The notes: a model not told the origin generated them from the sequence alone. DNA of 64,000 bases from Minisyncoccota bacterium (GCA_041674285.1 JBAYVZ010000003.1:20606-84605); one strand, 5' to 3'; numbered from the stretch's first letter, positions 35,388 to 58,725 are shown. Program-made: numbers and translations.

Positions 35388-35735
35388 TTATTTCTTCTTA
35401 GTATCAGCTGTCGTAGCCTTTGCGGACTTTGCGGCTGTAATCTCAGCTTCTTTCTTCTTCTGCTCTAATTCTTTCTGCATCTTACCTCCGTGACGTACGA
35501 ATTTCTTTGTAGGAGAGAATTCACCCAATCGGTGACCTACCATGTCTTCTGAAACCAGAACTTCGACATGAGTCTTACCATTGTGCACCCCAAACATAAA
35601 ACCTACCATCACTGGCGATATAACGCACGCACGAGACCATGTTTTAATCATGCCTGTCTCGATTGGCTTTTTTCCGGCAATCTTTTTCAAGAGCCTTTCG
35701 TCTACATATGGACCTTTTTTTAGTGATCTTGTCAT
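35388..35735 (-). CDS. rpsS: 30S ribosomal protein S19
   Basis: Conserved S19 sequence; normally adjacent to rplB, here separated from it by ~7.9 kb. Confidence 0.9.
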
Positions 35736-35908: not shown

Positions 35909-36886
35909 ATGATACTACGCAACATCTATTTTCTCCCAGCACAAGGTGCCTCGGGAGTACAAGGTTTTTTTGGAGACCCAAGATATCCAGAATACAAACA
36001 CAGCGGATTGATAAGAGCGACTTTTGGAGATATTTTCCATGGAATGGGATTTGTTTCCAAGACAGGAACTTATTTCTACAACAAAGGCAATGTGGAATTA
36101 GACAGAAATGGCTATTCCTTTAAAAGATTTGCCCCAGACGCAATTCGACCTTTTATTCTCAGAGGGGCAGCCCTAAATGCTGTAGGACTCAGTAATCCTG
36201 GTTATGAAAAGTTACTCAAAACAGGTTTATGGTTTGAGCGAACAGACCCATTTATGTTGTCATTTATGGCAGTGGAGAATACAGTAGAAAAGAGAATTGC
36301 TGAAGCTGAACTATTTGTAGAAGAAATGGCAAATTATCTTGGAAAATTTCGCACTCAATTTGCACTACAAGTAAATCTTTCCTGTCCCAATGTAGGTCAC
36401 GAGCAACATGGCTTGATTGCAGAATCATACAAAATGTTTGAGATTCTAAATAGACTAAGAATTCCATTAGTTCCTAAAATCAACGCATTACTCGATCCGG
36501 GAATCGCTTTTGAAATCATGGATCATCCTGCCTGCGATGCCCTATGTGTATCAAATACCATACCTTTTGGACAAGGACCTAGTGGTAAAATTGATTGGTC
36601 TAAATATGGACCCAAAGGTAAATCACCGCTTGAAAGAAAGAAGTATCCCCCCGGTGGATTATCAGGTGCACCAATATTCCCATTGGTGGTAGATTGGCTA
36701 CGTCATGCTAGCGAACTGAAAAATAGCAAGCCAATAATCGCTGGTGGTGGAGTTATGGACAAGGAATCCGTAGAAATATTGGCACAATATCCAAATGTAG
36801 AGGCCATATCCATAGGATCAGTAGCATTCCTAAGACCAGGGAGAGTAAGGGGAATAATAAAACAATGCTATAAAAGCATTAATTAA
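35909..36886 (+). CDS. dihydroorotate dehydrogenase family (class 1-like) flavoenzyme
   Basis: LSNPGYEKL, NLSCPNV, GGLSGAPI, IIAGGGV motifs match the DHOD / dihydropyrimidine dehydrogenase fold. Confidence 0.65.
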   Translation: MILRNIYFLPAQGASGVQGFFGDPRYPEYKHSGLIRATFGDIFHGMGFVSKTGTYFYNKGNVELDRNGYSFKRFAPDAIRPFILRGAALNAVGLSNPGYEKLLKTGLWFERTDPFMLSFMAVENTVEKRIAEAELFVEEMANYLGKFRTQFALQVNLSCPNVGHEQHGLIAESYKMFEILNRLRIPLVPKINALLDPGIAFEIMDHPACDALCVSNTIPFGQGPSGKIDWSKYGPKGKSPLERKKYPPGGLSGAPIFPLVVDWLRHASELKNSKPIIAGGGVMDKESVEILAQYPNVEAISIGSVAFLRPGRVRGIIKQCYKSIN

Positions 36887-37018
36887 AATCCCATTTTTAA
36901 AAAAAATAGAAAGTCCTGTTTTGCTTGCGCAAAACAGGACTTCTTGCTTTCTGGGTCCAAAAAGGCTAATCTAAAAGAAAAATTTCTAAATTAAATCACT
37001 TCTTTAAACAACTAAATT

Positions 37019-38173
37019 ATGAGCAAAATCAAAACAACTGACGAATTTGATAATTTCTCTAAAAATTTTCAAAAGGAACACACCATGCCCTATGCTTTCG
37101 GGATCGGAATCTGCTTTGAGGACGAAAAAGGGAAACCTATTGCCCACAAGTGGCTCGCTCTAAGTGTAGACGAAAACCTTGGTACAGCTTCAGTATTGAT
37201 GAAATCAATGGGAATTAAAATGGAAGGAAACTACCCGCAATACTACAAAATGAATGAATTCATTGCCATAGATATTGAAAAATATTTTTCACCCTTCGAA
37301 AATGACGGGAAATATCATGAAAACATAAAGGCACTAGAATACACTCAATACATAAAGTATAAAAGGACTAATGCTGTATTAATTTTCTATCCAACACAAG
37401 ATTTCTTTGGAGGTATGATATCTAGTAATGCTGACGCACATTTTCGATTGGCAGCCATTTCTCGACTGAAATTTAAACCTAACACAATCTGTTTGGACAA
37501 TTTATTAAATGTTTTACCAAAAAATGTGTACCTAAGTAACGGAGATGTTTGCAGTATTGATTTTTGGAATCAAGAAGAATTTATAAAGGGAAACTCACAA
37601 GTTCAAATTCAAAACATAGACCAGATACCTTTTCTTATATGGGGAGCACCCATTCCACCTAAGGTGCGTATTGCTAGTATTGATTGTGCCAGACTCGGGG
37701 CATACCTATCCCCTGGAACTACGATCATGCCCTATGGCTTTGTAAATTTCAATGCTGGGACTCTCGGAAAATCAATGGTAGAAGGCACAATTTCTGCGGG
37801 AACCACTATTGATGATGGTACAGATATCGGTGCTAGGTCTGGATTCCTCGGAACACTTTCTGGTGGAAACACAACAAAGCTTTCAGCTGGTAAAAATTGC
37901 CTTATTGGTGCTGAGTCTCAGTGTGGTGTGATTCTGGGAGACAACTGCGTAATAGCGACAGGAACTTGTTTTGCACAAGGTACCCCAATTCTGGAAATTG
38001 ATCCAAACATTAAAGAACTTGATAACCCATCAAGAATAATCCGTATTGGAAAAGCAAAAGATTACAATGGCAAAAGTGACCTGACTTTCTGGAGAAATTC
38101 AATTACAGGTGCATTGGAAGTTTTTAATAAAACTAACAAGCATAGTCTGAACGAAGAACTCCACAAGAATTAA
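37019..38173 (+). CDS. left-handed beta-helix acyltransferase, DapD-like (tetrahydrodipicolinate N-succinyltransferase family) with ~200-aa N-terminal domain
   Basis: PPKVRIASIDCARLGAYLSPGTTIMPYGFVNFNAGT...hexapeptide repeats resemble DapD (..GAFI..T.LMPSYVNIGA..). Confidence 0.55.
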   Translation: MSKIKTTDEFDNFSKNFQKEHTMPYAFGIGICFEDEKGKPIAHKWLALSVDENLGTASVLMKSMGIKMEGNYPQYYKMNEFIAIDIEKYFSPFENDGKYHENIKALEYTQYIKYKRTNAVLIFYPTQDFFGGMISSNADAHFRLAAISRLKFKPNTICLDNLLNVLPKNVYLSNGDVCSIDFWNQEEFIKGNSQVQIQNIDQIPFLIWGAPIPPKVRIASIDCARLGAYLSPGTTIMPYGFVNFNAGTLGKSMVEGTISAGTTIDDGTDIGARSGFLGTLSGGNTTKLSAGKNCLIGAESQCGVILGDNCVIATGTCFAQGTPILEIDPNIKELDNPSRIIRIGKAKDYNGKSDLTFWRNSITGALEVFNKTNKHSLNEELHKN

Positions 38174-38196
38174 TTAAATTTAATAAAAATAAGCAC

Positions 38197-38228
38197 CCTA
38201 TGCATATAATGCATAGGGTTGTTTTTTT
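38197..38228 (+). terminator. terminator hairpin CCCTATGCATATAATGCATAGGG + T-run
   Basis: Perfect palindrome followed by TTGTTTTTTT; its T-run merges into copy 2 of the 42-nt element. Confidence 0.65.
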
Positions 38229-38293
38229 GCCCAAATGTGGTACTGTAAAAGAAAAATTCTTAATTTTAAATCACTCTTTAAACAATTAAATTT

Positions 38294-39277
38294 ATGAGCA
38301 ACACAGAAATCACGACAAACTACGCAGGGCAAATTACAAAAGCTCTCTTAGATTCAAATTCAGCTGGCTACGACTTTGCTAACCCTAAACAATGGGCTAG
38401 TGGTACGTACAACCCTTTTTATGTGGACAACAGAAACCTTCAATCACTCCCAGAAATCAGGAAAATTCTGAGAAAAGGATTGGCTTCTTTAATTAATGCA
38501 GAAGTTGATTATGTTTATGGTATTCCTAATGCAGGCATTGCCCCTGCTACACTCCTGGCTCTGGAATTAAACAAACCGTTGTTGTTAAAATTAAACGGAT
38601 TGTATTATTCCATTGACTTGAACTATGTAAAAGAGCTTGTCCGAAATAACTCAAAAGAAATTGTTTGGGGTACTGAGATCATCGCTGGTACGACACCCTT
38701 TGGTACTGTATGTGGAATAGTTGCAGCAGAAGAATCCGATCTGCCATTTGTATTTATCCGCAAGGAACCGAAGGGTCACGGATTGAACAAGCAAATCGAA
38801 GGGATTATCAAACCTGGCGCTTTTGTGACACTAATGGACCCAATAGTTAAAGAATTCGACAGGTACACAGAGATCGCCAAAACGGCCATAGTAGAATCTG
38901 GAATGGATCCACGTTACACATGGGAAATCCCATTAAAAATCGAAAAGGAAGCTGAAGGCATCCTCGGGGCTACGATAGTTAGCAATGAGGACCTGGTAAG
39001 TACCGGAGAATCCATGTTGAAAGAAATAACAGATTTAGCTGATGAATATTCAGCAAAAATCATTCCTATTTCGATTTTTGATTACAAGCTGAATTCTGCA
39101 GTTGAAAATTTCAAAAAACATGGGATAGAGAACCGTAGCGTGGTAGATTTCCTTGAGATTTTAAAAGCCCTCGGAGAGAAGGGTATGCCAGATGCAGATG
39201 AAAGAAAAATCTGGACTTGGTACATGGATCAACCCAACTGGGGAGACAAGAACGGCTTCCCTGCTGTTCGTAAATAA
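38294..39277 (+). CDS. type I phosphoribosyltransferase-like protein (OPRTase-like core, 327 aa, atypical)
   Basis: FVFIRKEPKGHG..QIEG matches the OPRTase FNRKEAKDHGEGG..G; the canonical PRPP loop is replaced by AFVTLMDPIVKEF; a second PRPP-like motif TIVSNEDLVSTGESM lies further C-terminal. Confidence 0.5.
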   Translation: MSNTEITTNYAGQITKALLDSNSAGYDFANPKQWASGTYNPFYVDNRNLQSLPEIRKILRKGLASLINAEVDYVYGIPNAGIAPATLLALELNKPLLLKLNGLYYSIDLNYVKELVRNNSKEIVWGTEIIAGTTPFGTVCGIVAAEESDLPFVFIRKEPKGHGLNKQIEGIIKPGAFVTLMDPIVKEFDRYTEIAKTAIVESGMDPRYTWEIPLKIEKEAEGILGATIVSNEDLVSTGESMLKEITDLADEYSAKIIPISIFDYKLNSAVENFKKHGIENRSVVDFLEILKALGEKGMPDADERKIWTWYMDQPNWGDKNGFPAVRK

Positions 39278-39308
39278 CGTAAATAAAACAAGGGATTTAA
39301 AAAATAAA

Positions 39309-39338
39309 AAGAGGGCGACACTATCGTGTCCCCCTCTT
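39309..39338. terminator. bidirectional terminator AAGAGGGCGACACTATCGTGTCCCCCTCTT
   Basis: Between convergent genes 38294-39277 and 39365-40252. Confidence 0.6.
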
Positions 39339-39364
39339 TTTTAGTTTGGCTAACTTTTTTTAAT

Positions 39365-40252
39365 TTAATGAATTGATTGTTTTCTTAAACTAATAAATCC
39401 AGAAATTGAACTCTGTAATTTTATAGTTTCCCTTCTGGCAGCTTCAGCGAAATCTTCACCAGCAGATGCATACAAAATACCGCGCGATGAATTGATCATA
39501 ATTCCACCATTGTTAATATTCAAACCTGCAGCCAGTGTGGCCTCCAAGTCACCACCTTGAGCCCCAATCCCTGGAATAAGTCTATCCAACTCTCCACCTG
39601 TTTGTTCTACAATACGCTTTAAATCTTCAGTAAAAGTCGCACCGGTAACAAGCATGCAATTTTTGTTTTTGTTCCAGGTTTTTTCATCTGAAATACGCTT
39701 TGCTACATTCAAATACAATGGTAGTCCATTCTCGCAAATCATACCCTGGAATTCATCACTACCCTTGTTCGAGGTGCGGCACAATACGATGATACCGTTG
39801 TCTTTACGTTCCAAAAATGGTGTTAATCCCGTGTAGCCCATATATGGGTTAACGGTCACAGCATCAGCACCAATCACTTCAAATACAAAACGTGCATATC
39901 TTTCAGCGGAATTTTCAATTTCAGAGACTTTCATGTCGAGTATAGATCGTATACCTTTTGATTTAGCATGGGCCACAATACTCTCCAAAATACTCGAACC
40001 GATAGCTCCGTACGGCAAGTAGAAAGCCAAATTTGGCTTGTAAACTTTTACAACATCACAAGTGGCATCAATAATCTTGTTATTAAAGAAAACCATAGAG
40101 TCATGGATGTGATTATCTGAACCCCATTCCCCGCCAATTTGTTCTTTGACAGAAATCGGGATTTTTTCATAATCAGTGTCCATACCTACGCAAACCATTC
40201 TTTGATCTGCATCCATCTGACGCATTGCGTCCATAAAATTAATTGTACTCAT
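39365..40252 (-). CDS. pyrF: orotidine 5'-phosphate decarboxylase, type 2 (long form)-like
   Basis: VKVYKPNLAFY, DMKVSEI, GADAVTVNPYMG, LIPGIGAQGGD motifs. Confidence 0.6.
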   Translation of the reverse strand: MSTINFMDAMRQMDADQRMVCVGMDTDYEKIPISVKEQIGGEWGSDNHIHDSMVFFNNKIIDATCDVVKVYKPNLAFYLPYGAIGSSILESIVAHAKSKGIRSILDMKVSEIENSAERYARFVFEVIGADAVTVNPYMGYTGLTPFLERKDNGIIVLCRTSNKGSDEFQGMICENGLPLYLNVAKRISDEKTWNKNKNCMLVTGATFTEDLKRIVEQTGGELDRLIPGIGAQGGDLEATLAAGLNINNGGIMINSSRGILYASAGEDFAEAARRETIKLQSSISGFISLRKQSIH

Positions 40253-40374
40253 ATTCCTATATATATTTAAGGGTTTTTGTATACATTACAAGATATATAG
40301 TCTATGTCAATACAAAAAATTTTGATTTTAAGGGTTGAACTGATACTATAGAGCAAAACATTCAAAAAAAATAA

Positions 40375-41061
40375 ATGGAAAAACAAGAAAAACTAGTAAA
40401 ACTGCTTTTAGAAAAAGGAATTATTAAATTCAGATCCGAGGAACCAGTCGAAGAGAACCCTCAAATCAAGAGCCCTATGTACACCGACTTTGCTATGATT
40501 GTAGATTGGGATGAAATATCATCACTATCTACAGAAATATTGGCATCAAAAATTGATCAGAAAATAAATGAACTTGGTTTAATTTTTGATTTCATTGTTG
40601 GAATAAGCACAGCCGGCATACAAGTGGGTAAATTGATCGCTGAAAAATACGACAAACCATTCACGAGAATCAAAAGTGGCCAAACATACTCAGGAAATTC
40701 TGGAGACAATAATTTCATGCACGAACCACACTTTGTGAGCGGCAAAAAAGCCCTAGTAGTAGAGGACATTATTTACGCCAATGGAAATATGGTAAAAGAA
40801 GTGGATCTGATACGAAGACTCGGGGCTAGCGTAGTGATGGGGGCATCCATTCTCACCTACAACAACCTTGATTACCAAGGAGAGATCATTGAGAAGCAAA
40901 TTCCACTAGTTAATTCTCTAACAATCGACGAGGTTTTGATTATTTGCATTAAAAAAGAAATAATAAAGCCAAACGATTTTGAGATTCTAAAGAATTTTTT
41001 CATTGACCCCCGAAGCTGGTACAACAAGAACTTCCCAAACACAGCAATCGGGTCTAATTAG
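40375..41061 (+). CDS. type I phosphoribosyltransferase-like protein (OPRTase-like fold, degenerate PRPP motif VVEDIIYANGNM)
   Basis: IKFRSEE..SPMYTD ... KALVVEDIIYANG resembles PyrE, but with Y-A-N-G where the TTGG/TAGT loop should be. Confidence 0.45.
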   Translation: MEKQEKLVKLLLEKGIIKFRSEEPVEENPQIKSPMYTDFAMIVDWDEISSLSTEILASKIDQKINELGLIFDFIVGISTAGIQVGKLIAEKYDKPFTRIKSGQTYSGNSGDNNFMHEPHFVSGKKALVVEDIIYANGNMVKEVDLIRRLGASVVMGASILTYNNLDYQGEIIEKQIPLVNSLTIDEVLIICIKKEIIKPNDFEILKNFFIDPRSWYNKNFPNTAIGSN

Positions 41062-41170
41062 CACATTCACCAAAACAAAAAAATCCCTTACGATTCATTC
41101 GTAAGGGACTTTTTTATTTAAGCTTACAACTGTATAGAACAAAAAGCACCCGTATGGGTGCTTTTTTATA

Positions 41171-42256
41171 TTATTTACCACTATTTAGATATTTTGGAAT
41201 AAAGACTAGAAGTATTTTATAAAAATCCTCTATCGCCTTTATCTCTACGTATTCATCTTTTGTGTGAATATTAGGAGAATCAATGCGGGTAATTATAGCT
41301 GGTATTCCCAATTCTGAAAAAAATCTTGCATCCGAGCTACCCTCCATCTTTCCAAACTCAATCTTTTTACCCAAGACATCAGCGGATACTTTTTTATACA
41401 TCTGAACAAAAGGATGCTTTGGATCCTGAATAAACGGCTCCCCTGACATCACAACCTCAGCATTTGAAAACAGAGAATTAATCTTCTTTAAGATAAACTC
41501 TTTATCTTTTATGCCTGGATATCTGACATCCAATAGCATCTCAGCATAATCAGGAACTTTATTTACAGCATCACCACCTTTTATCAAGCCTAAATTCATA
41601 GTGGTTTTCCATTGTCTGGTTTTTAATTCAGGAATTATTTTTCTAAGCTTTAAATAATCTTTTATTAATTTATCAATCGCATTCTCGCCCCAAAAAGGTC
41701 GTGATCCGTGAGCACTCTTACCAAAACCTTTTAGTTTTAATTGCAAAATACCCTTTTTATTTACAACGATAGTAGACAACTCTGTTCCCCCATCAGGAGC
41801 AATGACGAGGCCCGCGCGGTATTTTTCTTTTTTTATTAAATACTCAGTACCATTCCTGCCCCCAATCTCCTCATCGGTAGTCAGCATGAGTGCGACAGAA
41901 TTATGCTGTCCATCTCGAGCAAAAGTCCTAAGAGCGAGCATCATAGCAGCACAGCCAGCCTTCATGTCCCCTGTACCCCGACCATACATCCTACCCTTTT
42001 TAACTACAGGATTGAATTGGTCTATATTTCCAGGCACAACGTCTAAATGCCCAGACAAAATCAAGTCAAAATTTTTACCCTCAGACAAACTAACAATAAT
42101 GACAGGATAATCATTTTGATTAAAAACTTTTACAAAGACTTGCTCATTCTCAAAGAATTTTTTAACAAACTCAACAATGTCAAACCGACCATCATTTTTA
42201 CTACTGTCTATCTTGACCAAATTAGAGGTTAATTCAATTAATTCTTTTTTATCCAT
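41171..42256 (-). CDS. M20 family metallo-hydrolase (DapE/ArgE/N-acyl-amino-acid deacylase-like)
   Basis: LSGHLDVVP, GRGTGDMKAG, TTDEEIGG signatures. Confidence 0.7.
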   Translation of the reverse strand: MDKKELIELTSNLVKIDSSKNDGRFDIVEFVKKFFENEQVFVKVFNQNDYPVIIVSLSEGKNFDLILSGHLDVVPGNIDQFNPVVKKGRMYGRGTGDMKAGCAAMMLALRTFARDGQHNSVALMLTTDEEIGGRNGTEYLIKKEKYRAGLVIAPDGGTELSTIVVNKKGILQLKLKGFGKSAHGSRPFWGENAIDKLIKDYLKLRKIIPELKTRQWKTTMNLGLIKGGDAVNKVPDYAEMLLDVRYPGIKDKEFILKKINSLFSNAEVVMSGEPFIQDPKHPFVQMYKKVSADVLGKKIEFGKMEGSSDARFFSELGIPAIITRIDSPNIHTKDEYVEIKAIEDFYKILLVFIPKYLNSGK

Positions 42257-42324
42257 ATTTTTAATATATCATATTTAATCTAATAAATAAGGAGGTCACA
42301 GAGACCTCCTTATAGACAACAACC

Positions 42325-43314
42325 TTACAAAACCAACCCAAATGTAGTATCCGTTGCTCCATGAATTTTGTAATTCTTTCGAGAATTCCACAACCCACCA
42401 GCATAAACATAATCCTTTATTTGTGGACTATACACAAAGAACAACCGAAATATCATCGGATCGCCATTACGCAACATAGGAGCAATAAATGACTGATAAT
42501 ACATAGAATTGTTTTCCTCTAGTACCCTTTTAATTCTAGTTTTTGTAGATATCCCGCTTATACCAGAATCTTCAAGAATTTTTTTGTGCGGGTACCATAT
42601 CTCCACACCTCTAGCTTTAGAACATTGTTTAGCTTTCAAGCAAAAACCTAAATCCCACTCAAAGTCATTAAAATCATCCACTGTAACTTCTTTCCATAAA
42701 CCCATTTCTAGGCCGTAACTCTTGTTTCCCTTTTGCTTCAAAGAACTTACTGATCGATTTTCAAATTTATGAAATTCTTCTTCGTTGGGTTCTGCTTTTA
42801 TCAAAAGTAAGTCTTGTGAATTTAAAGCATCTTCCATTGATATCATAGGAGTCCAGCAATCATAGCGACCATCTCGCCTCTCTGATAAAACTGTTTTAAA
42901 TTCCGGCCAATAAGGATTTATTTCCTTAAGCGTTTCTCTAAAACGAGGATTTGTCTCGTTAGCAATGCCCATACCACTAGGTCTCTCTTCAACTTCATAG
43001 ATATGTATTTCGGAGTCTTCCCGGAGTACACAATCCAACCTGATAAACAGCGAAGGTACACCAAAATTATGCTGAACCCAAGTTTCTTCTTTTGAAAAAA
43101 AATCTTTCCATTTATTTATTAAGGATAAGGCTTGTTTTTCGCATAAAGCTGATAATTTATACTCTTCATATGAGTAATTATTTTTCCAATTCATATTTCG
43201 ATTATATTTATTTTTTAAAGAACTATAAGGTAGCTCTGTTACCTGAGATTTTGTTTTGGTGAGCCTCACGCTCCCGTTTATACTAGATGACCTCATCTCG
43301 TATAAATATAGCAA
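42325..43314 (-). CDS. hypothetical protein (possible ATP-grasp-like ligase; start uncertain)
   Basis: ORF only; weak resemblance of IHIYEVEERPSGMGIA to ATP-grasp motifs; last gene of the island on this strand. Confidence 0.3.
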   Translation of the reverse strand: MLYLYEMRSSSINGSVRLTKTKSQVTELPYSSLKNKYNRNMNWKNNYSYEEYKLSALCEKQALSLINKWKDFFSKEETWVQHNFGVPSLFIRLDCVLREDSEIHIYEVEERPSGMGIANETNPRFRETLKEINPYWPEFKTVLSERRDGRYDCWTPMISMEDALNSQDLLLIKAEPNEEEFHKFENRSVSSLKQKGNKSYGLEMGLWKEVTVDDFNDFEWDLGFCLKAKQCSKARGVEIWYPHKKILEDSGISGISTKTRIKRVLEENNSMYYQSFIAPMLRNGDPMIFRLFFVYSPQIKDYVYAGGLWNSRKNYKIHGATDTTFGLVL

Positions 43315-43621: not shown

Positions 43622-44467
43622 CTATTTCTTTGCTTTACCAACACGTCGTCGTGAGACAATGTGCATATTTGAGTATTTCTTTGGTGTACGAGTCTTCTGG
43701 CCCTTTCCAGATGGCTTTCCCCACATAGTCTTGGCACGGCGTAGACCTCGTCCTTGAGCTCCTTCACCTCCTCCGTATGGGTGGTCTACAGGGTTCATGG
43801 CACTTCCACGTACTGTAGGGCGGATACCCTTCCAGCGTGAACGTCCAGCTTTACCAAAATTCTGAAGATGGAATTCTCCATTTGAAACTTCACCGATACA
43901 TGCCCAGCAGTTTTCAGAAACTTTTCGAACTTCTGTAGATGGCATCTTGATGTTTGTAAAACCATCATCGTTTGCAACTACTTGTCCGAATACTCCTGCT
44001 GCACGTACTAGTTTTCCACCGTTACCTGGCTTTATCTCGATGTTGTATACAAATGTACCAACTGGGATAATCTTCAAAGGCATACGGTTTGCAACTGTTA
44101 GTGGTGCTTTTTCTCCGACTGTAAACTTGTCCCCTACTTTTACAGACTTTGGAACCACTACATAACGCTTTTCTCCGTCAGCATATACTGCAAGACCGAT
44201 AAATGCATTTCTGTTTGGATCGTATTCTATAGAAGTTATCTTTGCTGGGATATCATGCTTGTTGTACATAAAGTCAACTTCACGATACAGACGCTTGTGA
44301 CCACCCCCCTTGTGGCGAGTAGTGATGCGACCCTGGTGATTGCGTCCAACTGAACGCTTGAAACCGTGAGTCAAAGATTTTTCAGGTGTACTTGTTGTAA
44401 GAACATTGCGGTATGAGACAGTAGTCTGATGACGCTTTGATGGTGTTGTAGGTTTATATGTTTTCAT
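43622..44467 (-). CDS. rplB: 50S ribosomal protein L2
   Basis: Conserved L2 sequence. Confidence 0.95.
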   Translation of the reverse strand: MKTYKPTTPSKRHQTTVSYRNVLTTSTPEKSLTHGFKRSVGRNHQGRITTRHKGGGHKRLYREVDFMYNKHDIPAKITSIEYDPNRNAFIGLAVYADGEKRYVVVPKSVKVGDKFTVGEKAPLTVANRMPLKIIPVGTFVYNIEIKPGNGGKLVRAAGVFGQVVANDDGFTNIKMPSTEVRKVSENCWACIGEVSNGEFHLQNFGKAGRSRWKGIRPTVRGSAMNPVDHPYGGGEGAQGRGLRRAKTMWGKPSGKGQKTRTPKKYSNMHIVSRRRVGKAKK

Positions 44468-46542: not shown

Positions 46543-47742
46543 CTACGCAATTATCTTTGTTACGACACCAGCACCGACTGTCTTACCTCCTTCACGGATA
46601 GCAAAGTGTGTTTGATCTTCGAGAGCTACAGGAGTAACTAGTTTTACCTTTAGTTTTACTGTATCGCCTGGCATAACCATCTCTACTCCCTCTGGAAGTG
46701 TTGATTCACCTGTTACGTCAGTTGTACGGATGTAAAATTGTGGCTTGTAACCAGTAAAGAATGGAGTGTGGCGACCACCTTCCTCCTTCTTTAGAACGTA
46801 AACTTCACATTCAAATTCTGAGTGTGGAGTAACTGAACCGATTTTAGCAAGAACTTGTCCACGAGTGATATCTTCTTTTTTGATACCACGGATAAGGATA
46901 CCTGCGTTGTCGCCAGCCATACCTTCTTTTAGGTTTTTGTTGAACATTTCGATACCAGTAACTGTAGTCTTTACAGTGTCCTTGATTCCGACGATTTCTA
47001 CGTCTTCACCAACTTTCACGATACCACGCTCGATTTTACCTGTAACCACTGTTCCACGTCCTTCGATAGAAAAGATATCTTCGATTGGCATTAGGAATGG
47101 CTTTGTAACATCGCGTTATGGTTGTGGGATGTATGTATCTAGAGCATTTGCAAGATCTAGGATCTTCTTTGCCCATTCATCATTGTTATCTGCTGATTCT
47201 AGGGCCTTTAGAGCTGAACCACGGATAACTGGAGTGTTTGCACCATCGTAACCGTTCTTTGTAAGCAATTCACGTAGTTCTTCTTCAACAAGTTCCAACA
47301 TGTCTGCGTCATCCACCATGTCACACTTGTTAAGAAATACGACGAATTGTGGCACACCAACCTGCTTTGCTAGGAGCACGTGTTCACGTGTCTGTGGCAT
47401 TGCACCGTCAGTAGCTGCAACAACAAGAATAGCACCGTCCATTTGAGCGGCACCAGTAATCATGTTTTTGATGTAGTCAGCGTGACCTGGAGCATCGATG
47501 TGAGCGTAGTGGCGAGCTGGTGTCTCATATTCATTGTGAGACAAAGCGATTGTGATTCCACGAGCTTTTTCTTCAGGAGCTGAGTCAATATCACCCACCC
47601 CCTTTAGTTTTGCACTATATCCACCACCTTGGCGAGCCAATGTGTTAAGGATTGCTGCTGTTAAAGTCGTCTTGCCGTGGTCAACGTGGCCAATAGTACC
47701 AACGTTTACGTGCGGCTTTGAACGATTAAATTCTTCTGCCAT
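46543..47742 (-). CDS. tuf: elongation factor Tu interrupted by a single in-frame TAA (47116-47118): possible pseudogene, sequencing error or recoding site
   Basis: ORFs 47116..47742 and 46543..47091 are in the same frame and read ...[22 protein letters not shown]..., colinear with EF-Tu (..[21 protein letters not shown].. in Thermus). Confidence 0.85.
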
Positions 47743-47956: not shown

Positions 47957-47988
47957 TAAAAAACACAAAAGAGCCCGATTGGGCTCTT
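47957..47988. terminator. terminator hairpin AAAAGAGCCCGATTGGGCTCTTTTGT after the secreted-protein operon
   Basis: Stem-loop flanked by A/T runs downstream of 48016. Confidence 0.6.
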
Positions 47989-48015
47989 TTGTACTAACAA
48001 CTAGAAACTAATTCT

Positions 48016-49290
48016 TTACCAAGTTATGAGGACACCTCCATTTGCCCCATTCCCAGTCATCCAATCATGATTATTTATACCACCTTCTCCTATGTCAATT
48101 TCAAATTTAGCATTGATAGGCAGATCTTCCCATCTATAAGTATTTACAACGTGAGCACCTGCACCACCACCACCACTCATAGGGGTGACGAATTCTCCTC
48201 CTACTAAAATTTTTGTTGTACAGAAAAGAGCACTAGCAAGTGTTGATTCTCTTCCAAAACCTCCCCCTCCGGCACCCCAACTAATAGTATTAGGCGACAA
48301 ACCTCTACCATTTGTAGTTCCGGTACGAGCACCACCTGCGCCTCCATATCCTCCAACTGTCATATTACCACCTGATATTGCAAACGTTGATGTTGCAGAA
48401 GTTCCACCACTACCACCCACACAAGCAGAATTAGTAGAATACCCACCTGAAGCTGAAAAAATTGACGGAGTTACAACAAAAGGATTTTGGCCATTCCCAC
48501 CCTTAGCAGTCGCTTGTTCTATCCCATTTACATAACCCTTACCCCCTTCACCACCTGTTTGCATTGTAGTACCCCAAGTAGTAGTACCGTAGCCCATTTT
48601 CCCAGCTTCAGCTTGAATTGTATAAAAAGTAGGTGTTGAACCAGAATAAATTCTCAAGGAAGAAGAATCCCCAGGGTTAGTTTTATTACCTGCGTTACCT
48701 GGATTTGAGTCTGTCCTAGGAACACTATTTCCACCAGCCCCCCAAAGCTCTACTTTTATATCTTTTACACCAGGGGGTAAAATAGCAGTGTCAAAGGTAT
48801 GATGTCCAGGAGTATTCCTATACCAAACACCAGAAAAAGAAGAACAAACAGTCAATTCTCCTGACGATGAGGCACATAGTCTCTTCGGTCCAGGCTTACC
48901 TCCAGAAATATCAATATTTTCTAGAACTAATCTATCCACACTGACCTTGCCTGTTCCTGGGCTAAAATTACAACCAGAAGGAGTACAGTTAGCACTACCT
49001 AAATTCAAACTACCAAAAGAAGCAGCATTACCATTTACAACCATAGAACCCTCTACATGGAAATTTGCTATTGGCGCACTAGATGTACCCAAAGCCAATT
49101 TACTTGTTTTATATTGAGGACTATATGTACCACCCATTAATGGCATGGCAGTATTACTTGCTGAAGAAAATGAGGCAGGACGAGATGTGTAGGTAGCAAA
49201 AGTATTTAAACCTAAAGTAAGAACAAGTGCTGGTACTAATATTTTTAAAATTTTAAATAAGTCTTTCATATTTTTATTAATTATGGGCAA
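48016..49290 (-). CDS. secreted protein: N-terminal domain paralogous to the two small secreted proteins (with C..C loop) + C-terminal Gly-rich domain (GAGGNS..GGEGGKG..GGYGGAGGAR..)
   Basis: Signal peptide; RLCASSSGELTVCSS loop; Gly-rich repeats reminiscent of phage tail-fibre-like Gly-rich domains. Confidence 0.5.
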   Translation of the reverse strand: MPIINKNMKDLFKILKILVPALVLTLGLNTFATYTSRPASFSSASNTAMPLMGGTYSPQYKTSKLALGTSSAPIANFHVEGSMVVNGNAASFGSLNLGSANCTPSGCNFSPGTGKVSVDRLVLENIDISGGKPGPKRLCASSSGELTVCSSFSGVWYRNTPGHHTFDTAILPPGVKDIKVELWGAGGNSVPRTDSNPGNAGNKTNPGDSSSLRIYSGSTPTFYTIQAEAGKMGYGTTTWGTTMQTGGEGGKGYVNGIEQATAKGGNGQNPFVVTPSIFSASGGYSTNSACVGGSGGTSATSTFAISGGNMTVGGYGGAGGARTGTTNGRGLSPNTISWGAGGGGFGRESTLASALFCTTKILVGGEFVTPMSGGGGAGAHVVNTYRWEDLPINAKFEIDIGEGGINNHDWMTGNGANGGVLITW

Positions 49291-49709
49291 ATAATAATCT
49301 CTTTGTTTGTATCAATACATAATGATTCCAATGTGTAGACGCTAGAGGATGAACCAGAAGACCCACCACCAGTCGACACGCTCAATCCATATGGATCTTG
49401 AATATCCCAAATATAAAGCTCATTTGAATATACAGAACCGACTTGAGCGAAATTACCCCATATTCCTAATGACTTTATGTAAGAATTCCCATAAACATTC
49501 AAAGTAGAACCTGAGCTAGCTGTTGTTCCTAAACTTAGAGATCCCCATATATTCTGAACTTTATTACCCGTATTTATGACTGGACCAAGATTTGATGCTG
49601 GGTCAGAAACTGAGGGTTTAGGCGTATAGGCTGCAGAAACCCAATTTATTGCTACTGTAAAAACTAGAGCAATTATTAATATTTTTATAGTGTGTAAAAT
49701 TTTTTTCAT
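49281..49709 (-). CDS. small secreted protein with C-terminal Cys loop (LCIDTNKEIIICP)
   Basis: Signal peptide; paralog of 49711-50193. Confidence 0.5.
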   Translation of the reverse strand: MKKILHTIKILIIALVFTVAINWVSAAYTPKPSVSDPASNLGPVINTGNKVQNIWGSLSLGTTASSGSTLNVYGNSYIKSLGIWGNFAQVGSVYSNELYIWDIQDPYGLSVSTGGGSSGSSSSVYTLESLCIDTNKEIIICP

Positions 49710-49710
49710 A

Positions 49711-50193
49711 TTATTGGCAAATTACAACTTTGTGTGTTCCATTATCAAGACAGAGAGCCCGACTAGCCCCTGTACCTCCAGATAAACCATAAACATGCAT
49801 CTTCTCCTGAATTACGCTAGACTGGGACTGCGTCGTCTTAACTGTATTGTTAACTACCATTTTGTTCGCAGTGACAGATCCAGGTATACCCAAAGAATCC
49901 GCAGATAAATCAAGAGACCCAAATGTAGTAAGACCGTATACATATACTGTTGAATCATTGCCATTACTCAAATAATCATAATAAGAACCAACAACCAAAG
50001 CATGAGGGACTTTATTACCAGAAGCACCAGTAGGAGTAGTTCCCACCTTGGACTGATCGACTAAAGGTGATGTTGTATATACAGGAGTAGAGAATCCTCC
50101 ATTTGGTGGAGTCGCAGTAGGCCCAGCAAATGCTACGCCAGCAAATGCTACGCCCACCAAAACCATGATTGAGAAAATTTGTTTTGTTTTCAT
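49711..50193 (-). CDS. small secreted protein with C-terminal Cys loop (LCLDNGTHKVVICQ)
   Basis: Signal peptide VAFAGVAFAG; paralog of 49281-49709. Confidence 0.5.
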   Translation of the reverse strand: MKTKQIFSIMVLVGVAFAGVAFAGPTATPPNGGFSTPVYTTSPLVDQSKVGTTPTGASGNKVPHALVVGSYYDYLSNGNDSTVYVYGLTTFGSLDLSADSLGIPGSVTANKMVVNNTVKTTQSQSSVIQEKMHVYGLSGGTGASRALCLDNGTHKVVICQ

Positions 50194-50197
50194 ATAA

Positions 50198-53100
50198 TTA
50201 GCGTTCTATTACTTTTATCTTCTTTGTTAATGGGTCAAAATTTACAGTTACATCATCACTACCTGGCTTTGTTGGATTTGAACAAGTGACCCTAAATATC
50301 GTAGGACCAGGATCAGAAACCGACACCGCATACCCAATAGAATTATTATCCATCTGAGCAGGTTGACCAGAAGCTACAGAAGTATTCTTTGTTACATTAG
50401 AAATTGCACAAGAATTTGCGAATGTAGATGTCCAATAAAGGTTTACATTTTCATAAATTTTTGCATTAGCTGGGAAAGCCCATGCGGTTACTATTGGTGT
50501 TGGGTTTACGGCAGTTACTCTCACTAGTATTGGCCCAACAGTCGCTCCATACATATCCAAACAGTTATAGAGAGTAAACGTCTGAGGTCCAGGTGTATTT
50601 CTTATAGTTACAGGAGTACTACTATTACCTATTATGTTTCCTGATTTCCAAGGAGACCCAGGACTAGTTGACGCCCTACAAGAGTTGGCACTGACACCAG
50701 ATATCTCCCAAAATAGTGTCTGAGTAGTTCCGATCACCGCCTCAATATTACGTGTATTTACATTTCCTATACCAAATTTTACAACAGCAGGAACTGGTGG
50801 AATCGTGGTCACAGTCACATCCAGATACTTAGTCACACTTGAATTTGCAGAGTTGAAACATTCCAACATGAATGAATCACCTGTTGATGATATAGATACA
50901 GGGAATGCATTAGGCGCCGTCAAGTTGGCAGAAAGTCGTGCGTTATTTAGCTTTACACTTGATGGTGATGTTCTATAAATATCACATCCACCACTAGCAT
51001 TTGTGGTTGACCAATACAATCCAGTATTTCTATTTGTTGAAGGTACAGGATTTATCGTAGCTTGTAAACCACCGTCGATTACTGGATCTGCAATGACCCC
51101 AACATTCACAGATAGATCTTTTGATACAAGAGAAACCCCGTCAGTACATGTAATTCTAAAAATAGAATTTGCAGATACACTCACTCCTGGCCTATTACCA
51201 TTCTTAGTCAAACCTATACCAAGATCAGAAAATGAGGGTGTAATTCTAGCAAGATTACATGAAGTAGTGTTTACCGATGTCCAACTCAATGTAGTATTGC
51301 CCCCCGAAGTAGAGCTAAATGATCCTGGGGTAGCTATAAATGAAGTAATTGAAGGTAGAGTCCCTGGATTATTCACAGAAATTAAAGAAGTTGAAGATTT
51401 TGTTTCTACTGGCAAAAGTTTGTTAAAACAATCAACTTTATATAGAGCATTCTGTGTCCCCACGTTAAATGTCTTATTGTAGAAAGCCAAGCTATTTGAC
51501 ACTATTCCTCCTGAATTTTCTGCCATCGGAGAAGCAACCCATCCATCACTCACAGCTTGAACAATACCGTTTACGGTCTTACTTGCATTACATGCAACCA
51601 TATTCCCAGTAATAGGTGTTTCAACTGTATTGTTAATAAATATCTTGTAGTAGATATTCGAAGATGGAGAATATGGTAATCCAGATAATCCAACCCTAAA
51701 ATCCCCGCCGGGAGTTGATGCAAGATAAAGATGATTCCACTGAGAAGGAGGAGCAACAAATCTTACCCAATATTTTGTACCTTTCACAACATTTACATTA
51801 TTTATAGGTATATAGCCCCAATTATAGGTTGTAGTTGAATTTGAAGGCCAGACAGCAGAAGGATTTGGAAATACTGCATTTTGACTACTCAGCATGCCAC
51901 CAAGCGAACCATTATTATCCCTATGGATATAAACGTTTAAATCGTATGGCTTATATGCAGTATTTGCCTTATAATAAATTTTTATTTGTCTTAGTGGTCC
52001 AGTGTCTTGAGCCACAAAACTCTGCATAGAATGCTGTGTCGAGGTCGGGCTATCCATCAATACTGAAGATGCAGGCGTAATGGGGCCAATATTCCCTAAG
52101 CCATTTGTCTGATAGGTGCCGACTCTCTTATGTGTATAAAAATTTATATTAGAAGCATTTGGGGATGGGTATGATACAGAGTTAGGATTGGCTGATATAT
52201 TATCCATAAAATTCCAAACTTTTACAGGCTGGGTAAATGTAACAGACTGACCATTGTTAATATTGGTACAAGTCAATGAATAAGTATTTGAATATTGGCC
52301 TACATATATATTCTTAGACCCAGAGACAGGTGTAGCAGATGGAGACCCGGACCAAAGAGATCCAGACCAATTAGTATCCCCAGAAGTGTTTGAAGCAGAA
52401 CATGTCGTAGCATTTTTAACAGACCATGTAAGATTTACAGCATTCAGCGATTTTATATCTACTGGATTTGGCAATTTACTTGAATCTACAACATAAGAAA
52501 CATCATTTTTGTCTACTGTAAAAGTAACAGTCGGTGATACTTTTATGCTTACAGAAGAGGTTCTGATTATCGTACCATTAGAACAAACGATACTATATAT
52601 AGCATCAGAAGGGCCCACATTTACTGTAAAATATTTCCCCGAACCAGATGACGGTACTATTGAACCAACCCAACCGTCACCAGCAGCCTGACTAACACCA
52701 TTTACTGTCTTTGAAGCAGTACAAGCTGTGGGTGCTACTGTAGTTGAAGTATTTAAAGAATTAAAAAAGCTAAGAAGAACCTGATTACTAGACTCAGAAA
52801 CTACATATTTTGATGCGGATAAAGATATATACATATTCCCAGTAGACCCCGAAATCTTTACCCCACTCATATCAATCCAACCAACTACATCACTTCCCCA
52901 GGCATATCCAGACATATTTCTAGGCATAGTTGAATTACCCGCAGCAGCAACAGAAACACCAGAAAGGTCTATGAAGCCAGAAAATCCTGGTAAGGAAGTT
53001 GAACCGTTACCAGATAATACCTTTGCGAAACCAGAGAGAGTGGTCGCAGAAGTCATAGATCCAATTTTTGGAGCACACAATGCGACAGTATTCCCAGCAG

Positions 53101-53380
53101 GACAAGAAGCGAGAGTCGGGTCAAAATGTATCCAACCCAAATTATCATTCCAAGCGTAGTTCGAAAGTAACTTAGTGCTATCATTTACAGTCACTTTAAA
53201 AGAGCCATTACCGCAGGCCCCAATATCTCCACAATTGAAACTAATCCAACCAACGTTTCCAGACCATGCACTACCAGAAAGTTCAAAATCGGCAGCATCT
53301 ACATTAGAAGCAAAAGAAAATAAACTAAAAATAAAAACTGCCGCAAAACCTATATTGGATAAGTATTTTTTAATATTCAT
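50198..53380 (-). CDS. giant secreted/cell-surface repeat protein (1060 aa from MNIKKYL); N-terminal 'AW....GWI.F' repeats
   Basis: Signal peptide; repeated SGSAWSGNVGWISF / YAWNDNLGWIHF / GYAWGSDVVGWIDM; Ser/Thr/Asn-rich beta-rich body. Confidence 0.5.
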   Translation of the reverse strand: MNIKKYLSNIGFAAVFIFSLFSFASNVDAADFELSGSAWSGNVGWISFNCGDIGACGNGSFKVTVNDSTKLLSNYAWNDNLGWIHFDPTLASCPAGNTVALCAPKIGSMTSATTLSGFAKVLSGNGSTSLPGFSGFIDLSGVSVAAAGNSTMPRNMSGYAWGSDVVGWIDMSGVKISGSTGNMYISLSASKYVVSESSNQVLLSFFNSLNTSTTVAPTACTASKTVNGVSQAAGDGWVGSIVPSSGSGKYFTVNVGPSDAIYSIVCSNGTIIRTSSVSIKVSPTVTFTVDKNDVSYVVDSSKLPNPVDIKSLNAVNLTWSVKNATTCSASNTSGDTNWSGSLWSGSPSATPVSGSKNIYVGQYSNTYSLTCTNINNGQSVTFTQPVKVWNFMDNISANPNSVSYPSPNASNINFYTHKRVGTYQTNGLGNIGPITPASSVLMDSPTSTQHSMQSFVAQDTGPLRQIKIYYKANTAYKPYDLNVYIHRDNNGSLGGMLSSQNAVFPNPSAVWPSNSTTTYNWGYIPINNVNVVKGTKYWVRFVAPPSQWNHLYLASTPGGDFRVGLSGLPYSPSSNIYYKIFINNTVETPITGNMVACNASKTVNGIVQAVSDGWVASPMAENSGGIVSNSLAFYNKTFNVGTQNALYKVDCFNKLLPVETKSSTSLISVNNPGTLPSITSFIATPGSFSSTSGGNTTLSWTSVNTTSCNLARITPSFSDLGIGLTKNGNRPGVSVSANSIFRITCTDGVSLVSKDLSVNVGVIADPVIDGGLQATINPVPSTNRNTGLYWSTTNASGGCDIYRTSPSSVKLNNARLSANLTAPNAFPVSISSTGDSFMLECFNSANSSVTKYLDVTVTTIPPVPAVVKFGIGNVNTRNIEAVIGTTQTLFWEISGVSANSCRASTSPGSPWKSGNIIGNSSTPVTIRNTPGPQTFTLYNCLDMYGATVGPILVRVTAVNPTPIVTAWAFPANAKIYENVNLYWTSTFANSCAISNVTKNTSVASGQPAQMDNNSIGYAVSVSDPGPTIFRVTCSNPTKPGSDDVTVNFDPLTKKIKVIER

Positions 53381-53381
53381 A

Positions 53382-53699
53382 TTATTGATACAAGCTTTTA
53401 ATAATCTCGAGCTCTCGAGCACGAGCTTCCTTGGTAGGTAATGTATTTGATTTTTTGCTTTGGGATTGTTCCACGAATTCTATTTTTTGTTCTTCTGACA
53501 GATTTATATTCATAGCATCTTCGGCTGTATTATTTATCATCTCTTGTATTTTTTCTTCTTCTGTCTGAGGTATTAGAGAAGCTTTGTATTTTTTATAAAA
53601 AAAGACACCAAGTAGAACTAGAACAATTAATAAAATTATTATAATGATATTTTTTTTCTGAGAGAAAAAATTTTGTGAAACTTTTTTTATGTCAATCAT
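53382..53699 (-). CDS. small N-terminally membrane-anchored protein, first gene of the secreted-protein operon
   Basis: Single TM (IIIIILLIVLVLLGVFF) followed by a charged region; its stop abuts the start of the giant protein gene. Confidence 0.45.
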   Translation of the reverse strand: MIDIKKVSQNFFSQKKNIIIIILLIVLVLLGVFFYKKYKASLIPQTEEEKIQEMINNTAEDAMNINLSEEQKIEFVEQSQSKKSNTLPTKEARARELEIIKSLYQ

Positions 53700-53810
53700 T
53701 GTATTTTTATTATATCACGCATGCAAAGTATCACAACACAAAATCTTGCTTTTCTGTGGAAAAGTTGGTATTATGTTTATACAAATGTCCGTCTCGAACC
53801 GGACTTTTTT

Positions 53811-58050: not shown

Positions 58051-58725
58051 TTACTTATTTAGGTCTAATTTGTGAATAACAGCATTTGATGTATCCACTT
58101 TGAATTCGATAGTGTCCTTGTACTTTAAATTTCCAAGGTTTAACTCAAATTTAAATTCTTTTGGTAAAGAATTGTAATCGAATTGGTCAAAATAAGAGTA
58201 AGGTAGCTCGGAATATCTATCAAAACCACTCTTACCCAGAGTCTTACCATAAAAATGGGTCACCAAGAATGTAGATTCAATGTATTTGGGATAGCCGTCT
58301 ACTTTGGCTAATGTACCATCTTCGTACTTCACCACTATAGCATCACCATTACCACCAATACCTGCTGGACCAGTAGAATAATCCCAAAAGCAATGATCCA
58401 CATCAAGCTTATTTAGGATTGCTTCATCATTACAACGTATCCTATGTAAATCGTTTCCATCTTTGTCTCGGACATCTACCCATGGTCCGTAATGCAGATA
58501 GTAGCAGAAGCACCATCCGGTGAAATTAGCTCCGCCTGGAATAATCCATTCGAACATCTGCATTTTTACCGGAGGTTGTGGAGGTACTACAACTACCGCC
58601 TGTTTTGGGGGAGGTGTTTTATTGTAACCACATGTCAGACACTCCTTTTGGCAAGAACTCGATGCAAAGATAAATGCAAAGATCATCGCTATCGAAATAG
58701 CGGAAAAGAAAAATTTATTTTTCAT
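58051..58725 (-). CDS. lipoprotein (lipobox FASSSC), Pro-rich linker, function unknown
   Basis: Signal peptide with a lipobox cysteine. Confidence 0.5.
   Translation of the reverse strand: MKNKFFFSAISIAMIFAFIFASSSCQKECLTCGYNKTPPPKQAVVVVPPQPPVKMQMFEWIIPGGANFTGWCFCYYLHYGPWVDVRDKDGNDLHRIRCNDEAILNKLDVDHCFWDYSTGPAGIGGNGDAIVVKYEDGTLAKVDGYPKYIESTFLVTHFYGKTLGKSGFDRYSELPYSYFDQFDYNSLPKEFKFELNLGNLKYKDTIEFKVDTSNAVIHKLDLNK

Follow-up and report, generated by a model that had tools for sequence, protein, structure and literature searches.

How the ultrasmall Patescibacteria recognize and attach to their hosts is largely unexplained; the literature centers on the type IV pili of a few cultivated Saccharibacteria and, for the Paceibacteria, notes only generic "Ig-like/PKD secreted proteins". 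Among bacterial surface structures, the tip adhesins of chaperone-usher and sortase pili share one module with their fellow subunits and alone have an additional binding domain. The WxL/Csc clusters and the Bacillus BclA nap combine co-secreted surface proteins, a small membrane or wall anchor, noncovalent attachment repeats, and fibers with a TNF/C1q-like head. Among phage proteins, gp24 of cyanophage Pam3 recognizes the host receptor with a glycine-rich domain into which the strands of a TNF-like domain continue, and it resembles both gp38 of Salmonella phage S16 and the ALK ectodomain (PMC9608196); polyglycine "brush" domains are considered to be anti-receptors (PMC13243795). Here, we analyze a stretch of 64,000 nucleotides from a Minisyncoccota bacterium (GCA_041674285.1 JBAYVZ010000003.1:20606-84605; hereafter, the window) and, within it, an operon of five genes, g1 to g5, that lies on the minus strand at positions 53699..48016. 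We suggest, at a probability of roughly one half, that this operon encodes a Sec-exported, multipart fiber apparatus of the cell surface, in which a cell-anchored platform (g1 and g2) would display fibers (g3, g4, and g5). In the literature we found no description of the cluster or of its motifs, nothing relevant on the Pfam family PF21722 (Gly_rich_2), and no account of a fiber cluster in the candidate phyla radiation.

The calling of open reading frames (ORFs) located all five genes on one strand, as the first-pass annotation of this locus had proposed, with the following boundaries (aa, amino acids):

53382..53699, minus strand: g1, 105 aa, bitopic, with a short basic N-terminus, a transmembrane segment at about aa 18-35, and, toward the C-terminus, an acidic helical region that finishes in ..RELEIIKSLYQ
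50198..53380, minus strand: g2, 1060 aa from the ATG, or 1074 aa if an upstream GTG is used
49711..50193, minus strand: g3, 160 aa, a secreted headless protein of the N-module family (described below), ending in a C-x10-C loop
49281..49709, minus strand: g4, 142 aa, likewise secreted, headless, and of the N-module family, with a C-x9-C loop at its end
48016..49269, minus strand: g5, 417 aa from the ATG; an upstream TTG start gives 424 aa

The public annotation of the same metagenome-assembled genome (MAG) also gives 1060 aa for g2 and 417 aa for g5; the 424 aa first assigned to g5 require the TTG start. The gaps between successive genes (g1-g2, g2-g3, g3-g4, and g4-g5) are 1, 4, 1, and 11 nucleotides (nt), so the spacing of 0-5 nt claimed earlier holds for all except the last. 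A read-through fusion of neighboring genes is ruled out because their frames differ. None of the five proteins could be named when the locus was first read, and no curated family of Pfam, NCBIfam, or PHROGs reaches its threshold for any of them; in particular, no assignment to a housekeeping family emerged. Sequence searches of the PDB with g5, with g2, and with the profiles of the g5 family, the small proteins, and the AW..GWI domain of g2 (see below) gave nothing usable. A word-index search yielded few homologs: g5 had 5 clusters, g2 had 12, and a mixed small-protein profile had 4.

The three distal genes are linked by their N-termini. Profile comparison confirms the earlier suspicion that g3, g4, and the N-terminus of g5 are true paralogs sharing one N-terminal module: a hidden Markov model (HMM) of 28 distant members, none of them from this clade, matched only g4 (E 3e-24), g5 (2e-17), and g3 (7.5e-6) among the 215 ORFs of the window. 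The whole of g4 aligns from end to end with the N-terminal 145 aa of g5, terminal cysteine pair included (BLASTP E 3e-7), and g3 is more distant. This N-module comprises, in order, a signal peptide, a segment of about 70 aa that is conserved, a short beta-rich stalk, and the C-x9-10-C loop that had been noticed at the outset. The conserved segment, ..P..PP..N..P.N....Q.K.G.L.[IL]G....P...L.V.G, is found in all three proteins, and the loop reads C-x10-C in g3 and C-x9-C in both g4 and g5. Both g3 and g4 stop at this loop, and in g5 it forms the junction to a Gly-rich domain, which divides the protein into two parts:

48835..49269, minus strand: g5 N-module, aa 1-145, with signal peptide, conserved segment, short stalk, and C-x9-C loop
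48016..48834, minus strand: g5 head, aa 146-417 plus the stop codon, in the model a TNF-like beta-sandwich that bears a polyglycine-rich "brush" domain

When 1.84 billion representative proteins were searched exhaustively with a profile, 35 relatives were retrieved, most of which aligned only from profile position 1 to positions 80-180, that is, over the N-module. In the AlphaFold2 model of g4 (mean predicted local distance difference test, pLDDT, 66.6), a signal helix is followed by a Pro-rich linker and a short beta region.

The export signals of the operon are of one kind. As assessed by eye and by hydropathy, with inferred cleavage sites, g2, g3, g4, and g5 each begin with a single hydrophobic segment, after which comes an A-x-A-type site (VDA/AD, AFA/GP, VSA/AY, and TFA/TY, respectively, the slash marking the cut), and all four are predicted to carry Sec-type signal peptides. 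The g1 protein has a single strong transmembrane segment (hydropathy peak 3.11), preceded by a more basic N-terminal flank and followed by an acidic helical tail; this charge distribution points to an N-in/C-out topology. The description of the five proteins as secreted or anchored is thus borne out by these predictions. Neither g1-g5 nor 102 N-module ORFs contain a prepilin-peptidase site (the class III signal G/[FM]T[LT][LI]E, with Glu at +5), an LPXTG motif with a hydrophobic segment and a basic tail, or a lipobox, and there is no C-terminal hydrophobic segment in g2, g3, g4, or g5.

These signals bear on a different interpretation of the shared module. Three proteins built on one module, only one of which has an extra binding domain, could be the subunits of a polymerized pilus or fimbria, with g3 and g4 as its major and minor subunits, g5 as the tip adhesin, g2 as an usher-like protein or stalk, and g1 as the anchor; the conserved segment at the mature N-terminus could serve as a donor strand, and the terminal cysteine pairs could form disulfides between subunits. 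We nonetheless regard such a pilus as quite unlikely. Apart from the missing prepilin-peptidase, LPXTG, and lipobox signals, neither an assembly ATPase nor an usher, a sortase, or a chaperone is encoded in the operon, genes for pilus assembly are absent from the whole window, and the g4 model resembles no pilin. Furthermore, the Peptidase_S74 and collagen domains carried by relatives of these proteins mark trimeric fibers, not head-to-tail polymers.

The fiber apparatus proposed here draws its presumed function from the head of g5. An AlphaFold2 model of g5, built from five orthologs, is confident over most of aa 146-417 (means of about 65-92 in blocks of 10 residues), and it falls below 50 in three loops. 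By its modeled structure, the head would belong to the class of receptor-binding domains that join a TNF-like fold to a polyglycine "brush" and that includes Pam3 gp24, S16 gp38, and Bxb1 gp33. A Foldseek search of the PDB with the g5 model returned no match. The Gly_rich_2 profile of Pfam stays below its threshold for g5 (16.5 bits against a gathering cutoff of 24.3; E 0.0087), with aa 158-417 aligned to profile positions 5-225 of 226, and it matches at E <= 0.1 in only two of the five g5 orthologs. An HMM of the head reached, weakly, only two other proteins (P0051 and P0024).

The platform would be formed by g2, in which four parts can be distinguished:

53294..53380, minus strand: g2 signal peptide, aa 1-29, ..SNVDA/AD, from sequence and hydropathy, the cleavage site inferred
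52826..53293, minus strand: g2 AW..GWI four-repeat domain, aa 30-185 (about 155 aa), from its motifs and from the alignment with seven other proteins
50261..52825, minus strand: g2 stalk, aa 186-1040, with seven putatively Ig-like units of one cysteine pair each, broken by a cysteine-free central domain
50201..50224, minus strand: g2 extreme C-terminal motif, KKIKVIER, conserved in the orthologs

The repeated AW/GWI motifs reported earlier in this 1060-aa protein are indeed there: hairpin-like repeats of the form G.AW..N.GWI.F are clear at aa 38, 76, and 160, and a degenerate fourth lies between them. The domain that they compose aligns to seven proteins of other architectures, and it has no match among Pfam models or PDB sequences. 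Among the ORFs of the window, the A6 HMM, in which g2 itself is contained, matches only g2 (E 1.5e-59). The family as we define it here combines four such repeats with a C-terminal motif, P(-6)-x-Phi(-4)-x-E(-2)-x, in which Phi is [FWIVY], and g2 has both. Glu occupies position -2 in 64 of 82 AW..GWI proteins, versus 57 of 1019 background ORFs (5.6%); typical endings are FEEF, WKEI, FQEV, and VIER, with no hydrophobic anchor after them, and g2 itself ends in the tail ..DPLTKKIKVIER. This motif may be an undescribed sorting or anchoring signal. Over its whole length, g2 is composed of 34% Ser, Asn, and Thr and contains 18 cysteines in nine local pairs. The pairs within the stalk (220/266, 327/371, 597/651, 708/745, 799/841, 901/940, and 991/1033) recur in an L.W....C...C context, a pattern that suggests Ig-like units; the cysteine-free central domain covers about aa 385-590 (some 200 aa). 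A self-comparison of g2 by BLAST detected no internal repeats off the diagonal. In AW..GWI proteins elsewhere, the stalk position is occupied by PKD, Ig, CARDB, or fn3 domains, which are all of the spacer type, and the AW..GWI domain is also found with quite different partners (Big_2, LamG, LVIVD, and CarboxypepD_reg).

Two further proteins show what the AW..GWI domain can be joined to. In a 683-aa ENA metagenome protein (P0013), it is fused directly to a Gly_rich_2 (PF21722) head, which is followed by Ig-like repeats, and there is no N-module; this protein is a possible Rosetta-stone link between the domains of g2 and g5, and an hhalign comparison of the g5 family with P0013 did not connect the two Gly-rich domains. 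In a MAG of Candidatus Harrisonbacteria (L024:8930-10438), the AW..GWI domain lies at the C-terminus of a type-IV-pilin-like protein with an MRGFTLLE.. N-terminus and a Pfam N_methyl match, and in this lineage at least it may be presented on a pilus.

The composition of g2 also suits a less specific role. Rich in Ser, Thr, and Asn, with few charged residues and with Ig-like units, it is built like many coat proteins, and beside its signal peptide it has short aromatic-rich repeats of a kind that wall-binding repeats resemble. Hence, g2 could be a coat bound to the wall or the surface layer through its AW..GWI repeats, with g3, g4, and g5 as accessories, and the operon would encode structural envelope or surface-layer-associated proteins that play no specific part in adhesion; AW..GWI proteins are very common in the phylum, and the g5 head is conserved within its clade and not diversifying, which would accord with this role. 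We consider it unlikely, since the fold of the g5 head is otherwise known from the tips of receptor-binding fibers and from ligand-binding ectodomains, and since the heads borne by N-modules are highly varied (lectin, Gp38, Gp10_C, and S74-assisted), which fits ligand recognition better than a uniform coat. The several loci that have multiple AW..GWI and N-module genes also speak against it.

The small protein g1 would complete the platform of the fiber apparatus. Every ortholog of g2 has an ortholog of g1 directly upstream, and in other Patescibacteria the AW..GWI genes may be directly preceded by similar small transmembrane proteins that share an [ED]x[EKR]xxI[IL]xS[LI] motif at the C-terminus. 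The HMM places a g1-like protein immediately before the AW..GWI gene at 12 loci; by hydropathy, a small ORF with a single transmembrane segment occupies that place in 26 of 74, and by eye about 20 of these 26 finish in the same motif. Matches of g1 to Rz-like spanins and to other families were low-scoring similarities of a transmembrane segment plus helix and were not accepted as homology.

The distribution of these parts extends well beyond the window. When related genomes were examined for the cassette, as had been recommended, it was found complete between nusA and tuf in three of them (L001, L003, and L011) and in part on two short contigs, one with g1 and g2 beside nusA (L004) and the other with the end of g2, g3-g5, and tuf (L005); a more distant relative (L006) has g1 and a 700-aa AW..GWI protein beside nusA, in the same position. 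Across these relatives, protein identity is 37-61% for g5 and 36-52% for g2, and the flanking DNA is 78-95% identical between genomes in which the DNA of the cassette is mostly below 70% or undetectable. Within g2, the AW..GWI domain (48-57% identity among orthologs) and the C-terminal tail (65-90%) are both uniformly conserved, as against 20-67% identity in the central domain and the Ig-like units. The best-conserved DNA of the cassette (77-88% identity to relatives) lies at 50114-50236, where the last codons of g2 (DPLTKKIKVIER) meet the signal peptide of g3 (MKTKQIFSIMVLVG..AFAG); translational coupling and a functional signal are both possibilities. The same list of parts recurs at an unrelated genomic site (L010), where a g1-like protein is accompanied by an AW..GWI protein of 338 aa, an N-module protein of 655 aa whose head is Gly-rich, and two Cys-loop proteins that have no head.

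The AW..GWI domain alone was recovered in at least 546 confirmed stretches by tblastn, with the g2 domain as query and one genome per species. Among the matches listed, nearly all come from records titled as Patescibacteria lineages: groups of the Paceibacterota/Parcubacteria (Harrison-, Giovannoni-, Kaiser-, Nomura-, Adler-, Yonath-, Taylor-, Portnoy-, and Niyogibacteria), the Minisyncoccia, and MAGs labeled Saccharibacteria. Two contigs of MAGs labeled as Bacteroidota, L021 (Patiriisocius sp.) and L039 (Bacteroidetes bacterium), also contain it; they may be mis-binned contigs or rare transfers. ORFs were called in the 80 loci listed and searched with the HMMs, and 74 loci, counted at the species level, have an AW..GWI ORF. 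N-module genes are present in 49 of these 74, within 500 nt in 34, at a median gap of 436 nt, and all 82 N-module ORFs lie on the strand of the AW..GWI gene, as against 78% of long ORFs generally. One locus in a MAG of Candidatus Kaiserbacteria (L064:4655-14417) is expanded: eight N-module genes, of which several are very Gly-rich toward the C-terminus, share one strand and less than 10 kb with two AW..GWI genes. As judged from sequence, the genes for g1-like, AW..GWI, and N-module proteins thus form a conserved cluster in many Patescibacteria, on the same strand and usually adjacent. The earlier term "lineage-specific" is consequently too narrow: only a small clade has the exact five-gene cassette, and the three kinds of component from which it is built are conserved across many lineages of the group.

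The heads differ from one locus to another. Of 97 N-module proteins beside AW..GWI genes, seven carry Peptidase_S74 (the four checked score 35-59 bits against a cutoff of 22), three carry Collagen, and two carry Gly_rich_2 (best E 7e-30); GP38 adhesin, H_lectin, and Hint domains also occur, and another N-module relative has the Gp10_C domain of T4. Peptidase_S74 (PF13884), which serves trimeric fibers and spikes as an intramolecular chaperone at the C-terminus, was not found in g3, g4, or g5. The N-module segment G.L.IG....P...L.V.G recurs in the shafts of three relatives (P0032, P0039, and P0044). The pattern suggests a constant N-module on fibers with interchangeable heads, encoded beside a stalk-like protein whose repeat domain and tail are constant. 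The proteins of the window may form trimeric fibers as well; a heterotrimeric stalk of g5, g3, and g4 is conceivable, given that one headed and two headless paralogs occur both in the clade of the window and at the unrelated site of L010.

The phage-type Peptidase_S74, GP38, and Gp10_C domains of the N-module family, together with a g5 head whose modeled structure matches phage fiber proteins, are what a prophage or tailocin would leave behind if the cassette were the chromosomal remnant of its tail-fiber module. Such an origin is very improbable. Virion proteins are without Sec signal peptides, and here all four of g2-g5 are predicted to have them; the locus has no other phage genes, its neighbors being housekeeping genes; and the position between nusA and tuf is fixed across relatives whose proteins are only 36-61% identical. 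Searches of 2.9 million viral contigs with the AW..GWI and N-module queries gave no confirmed match, the N-module scan having used a tight small-protein alignment, and tblastn of the g5 head against 50,697 phage records found none. The initial comparison with a phage-tail-fiber module is supported in that N-module relatives carry Peptidase_S74, collagen, GP38, and Gly_rich_2 heads, but it probably does not hold for the origin of the locus.

The fiber apparatus could work as follows. The g1 protein would tether g2 at the membrane, and g2 would project from the cell as a platform on which the N-modules of g3, g4, and g5 dock, most likely at the AW..GWI domain. The head of g5 would recognize a ligand on a second cell, for which the host of the presumed episymbiont is the most plausible candidate, and the headless g3 and g4 would be co-subunits of the g5 stalk or adaptors. 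The overall logic would be like that of a phage baseplate with exchangeable fibers, but built through the secretion pathway of the cell itself. We favor docking on g2 because the two families are tightly co-encoded, because the head of P0013 sits directly on an AW..GWI domain where the N-module is missing, and because the AW..GWI domain and the C-terminal tail are uniformly conserved whereas the central and Ig-like regions are variable. A host cell is suggested as the target because of what is known of the lifestyles of the Paceibacteria. It is possible, although we put this forward only tentatively, that the cluster represents a phylum-wide and undescribed host-recognition organelle of the Patescibacteria, in which a Sec-exported platform and exchangeable fibers with a shared docking module and phage-type heads help to decide host attachment.

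Several observations weigh against this interpretation. The classification of the g5 head derives from one AlphaFold2 model of five sequences, and by sequence the head could be linked neither to a solved structure nor to any of the phage records searched. Within the clade, the head is more conserved (46-78% identity, a figure inflated by glycine runs) than the stalk (36-48%), the opposite of the variable tip that would be expected of a determinant of host range. About a third of the AW..GWI loci are without an N-module gene within 10 kb. Finally, the N-module is poorly modeled as a monomer, with a pLDDT below 40 in g5 and the low mean already given for g4, and its structural matches to beta-solenoids are insignificant.

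The operon has the signals of a single transcription unit at both ends:

53709..53736, minus strand: promoter-like site, TTGTGA-16-TATAAT with a TG extension (extended -10), just upstream of g1
47962..47995, minus strand: intrinsic terminator, a 15-bp stem plus a T run, directly after g5

The promoter-like site is a match to the consensus only, such sites being no more numerous in the region than expected by chance, and its position is compatible with one transcript. Because it precedes g1, because the terminator follows g5, and because tuf has a promoter-like site of its own, g1-g5 probably constitute one transcription unit. On one flank lie nusA, ppa, rpoD, and tig, divergent from the operon, and on the other tuf and then the S10 operon.

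The tuf gene itself (47742..46543, minus strand) has an in-frame TAA at 47116-47118 (..YIPQP*RDVTKPF..) that splits EF-Tu into ORFs of 208 and 182 aa. In L001, L003, and L011 this codon is GAA or GAG (Glu), a single G-to-T difference; recoding is unlikely, and the more probable explanations are an error of sequencing or assembly and a minority allele. The alternative genetic code that this codon might suggest was rejected, since TAA is the stop of nearly every gene in the window and the relatives have Glu at this place, and the boundaries of g1-g5 therefore stand. Farther away, about 8 kb of nonribosomal genes on both strands (35909-43314) split the ribosomal-protein operon between rpsS (35388..35735) and rplB (43622..44467), where L001 and L003 hold smaller inserts. 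Between tig and clpP, a 224-aa ORF (58051-58725, minus strand) begins in the manner of a lipoprotein (..IFASSSC..) and continues with a Pro-rich stretch.

Much of the general picture, namely the Ig-like stalk, the TNF-like and polyglycine folds, and the idea of a surface adhesin, was already known; the AW..GWI domain, the N-module, and the g1 family were not recognized by Pfam or NCBIfam. With HMMs for these three families, hundreds of "hypothetical proteins" would become recognizable as a cluster. If the model holds, genome sequences could reveal the type of head and so help to predict the host or ligand, and the pair of AW..GWI domain and N-module would be a new docking interface for study and annotation. 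The locus is a second candidate system for host contact, beside type IV pili, and it would be a cellular counterpart of the phage baseplate with its tail fibers.

Compared with the systems with which we began, the operon shares some features with each. Its g5 resembles the brush receptor-binding proteins of cyanophage Pam3 (gp24; 7YPX), Salmonella phage S16 (gp38; 6F45), and mycobacteriophage Bxb1 (gp33 with gp29; 9D93) in its modeled head, but it differs from them in its Sec signal peptide, in an unrelated N-terminal module, and in its chromosomal and syntenic location; unlike Pam3 gp24, it has no alpha-helical shaft, and no fiber chaperone gene is evident. It resembles Gly_rich_2 proteins in covering nearly the whole profile, which other N-module proteins beside AW..GWI genes match strongly. 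The likeness to trimeric fibers with S74 or collagen domains lies in the N-module relatives that carry these domains C-terminally beside AW..GWI genes, whereas g3, g4, and g5 have neither. With the type IV pili of Patescibacteria the operon shares the standing of a candidate host-contact structure; it differs in that its proteins, like the other N-module ORFs, have no prepilin-peptidase site and in that its signal peptides are of the Sec type with A-x-A. Finally, it is like the WxL/Csc clusters and the BclA nap in being an operon of several co-secreted surface proteins with a small anchor, putative noncovalent attachment repeats, and a modeled TNF-like head, and unlike them in that no match of g1-g5 to WxL, DUF916, collagen, or C1q came from Pfam or NCBIfam.

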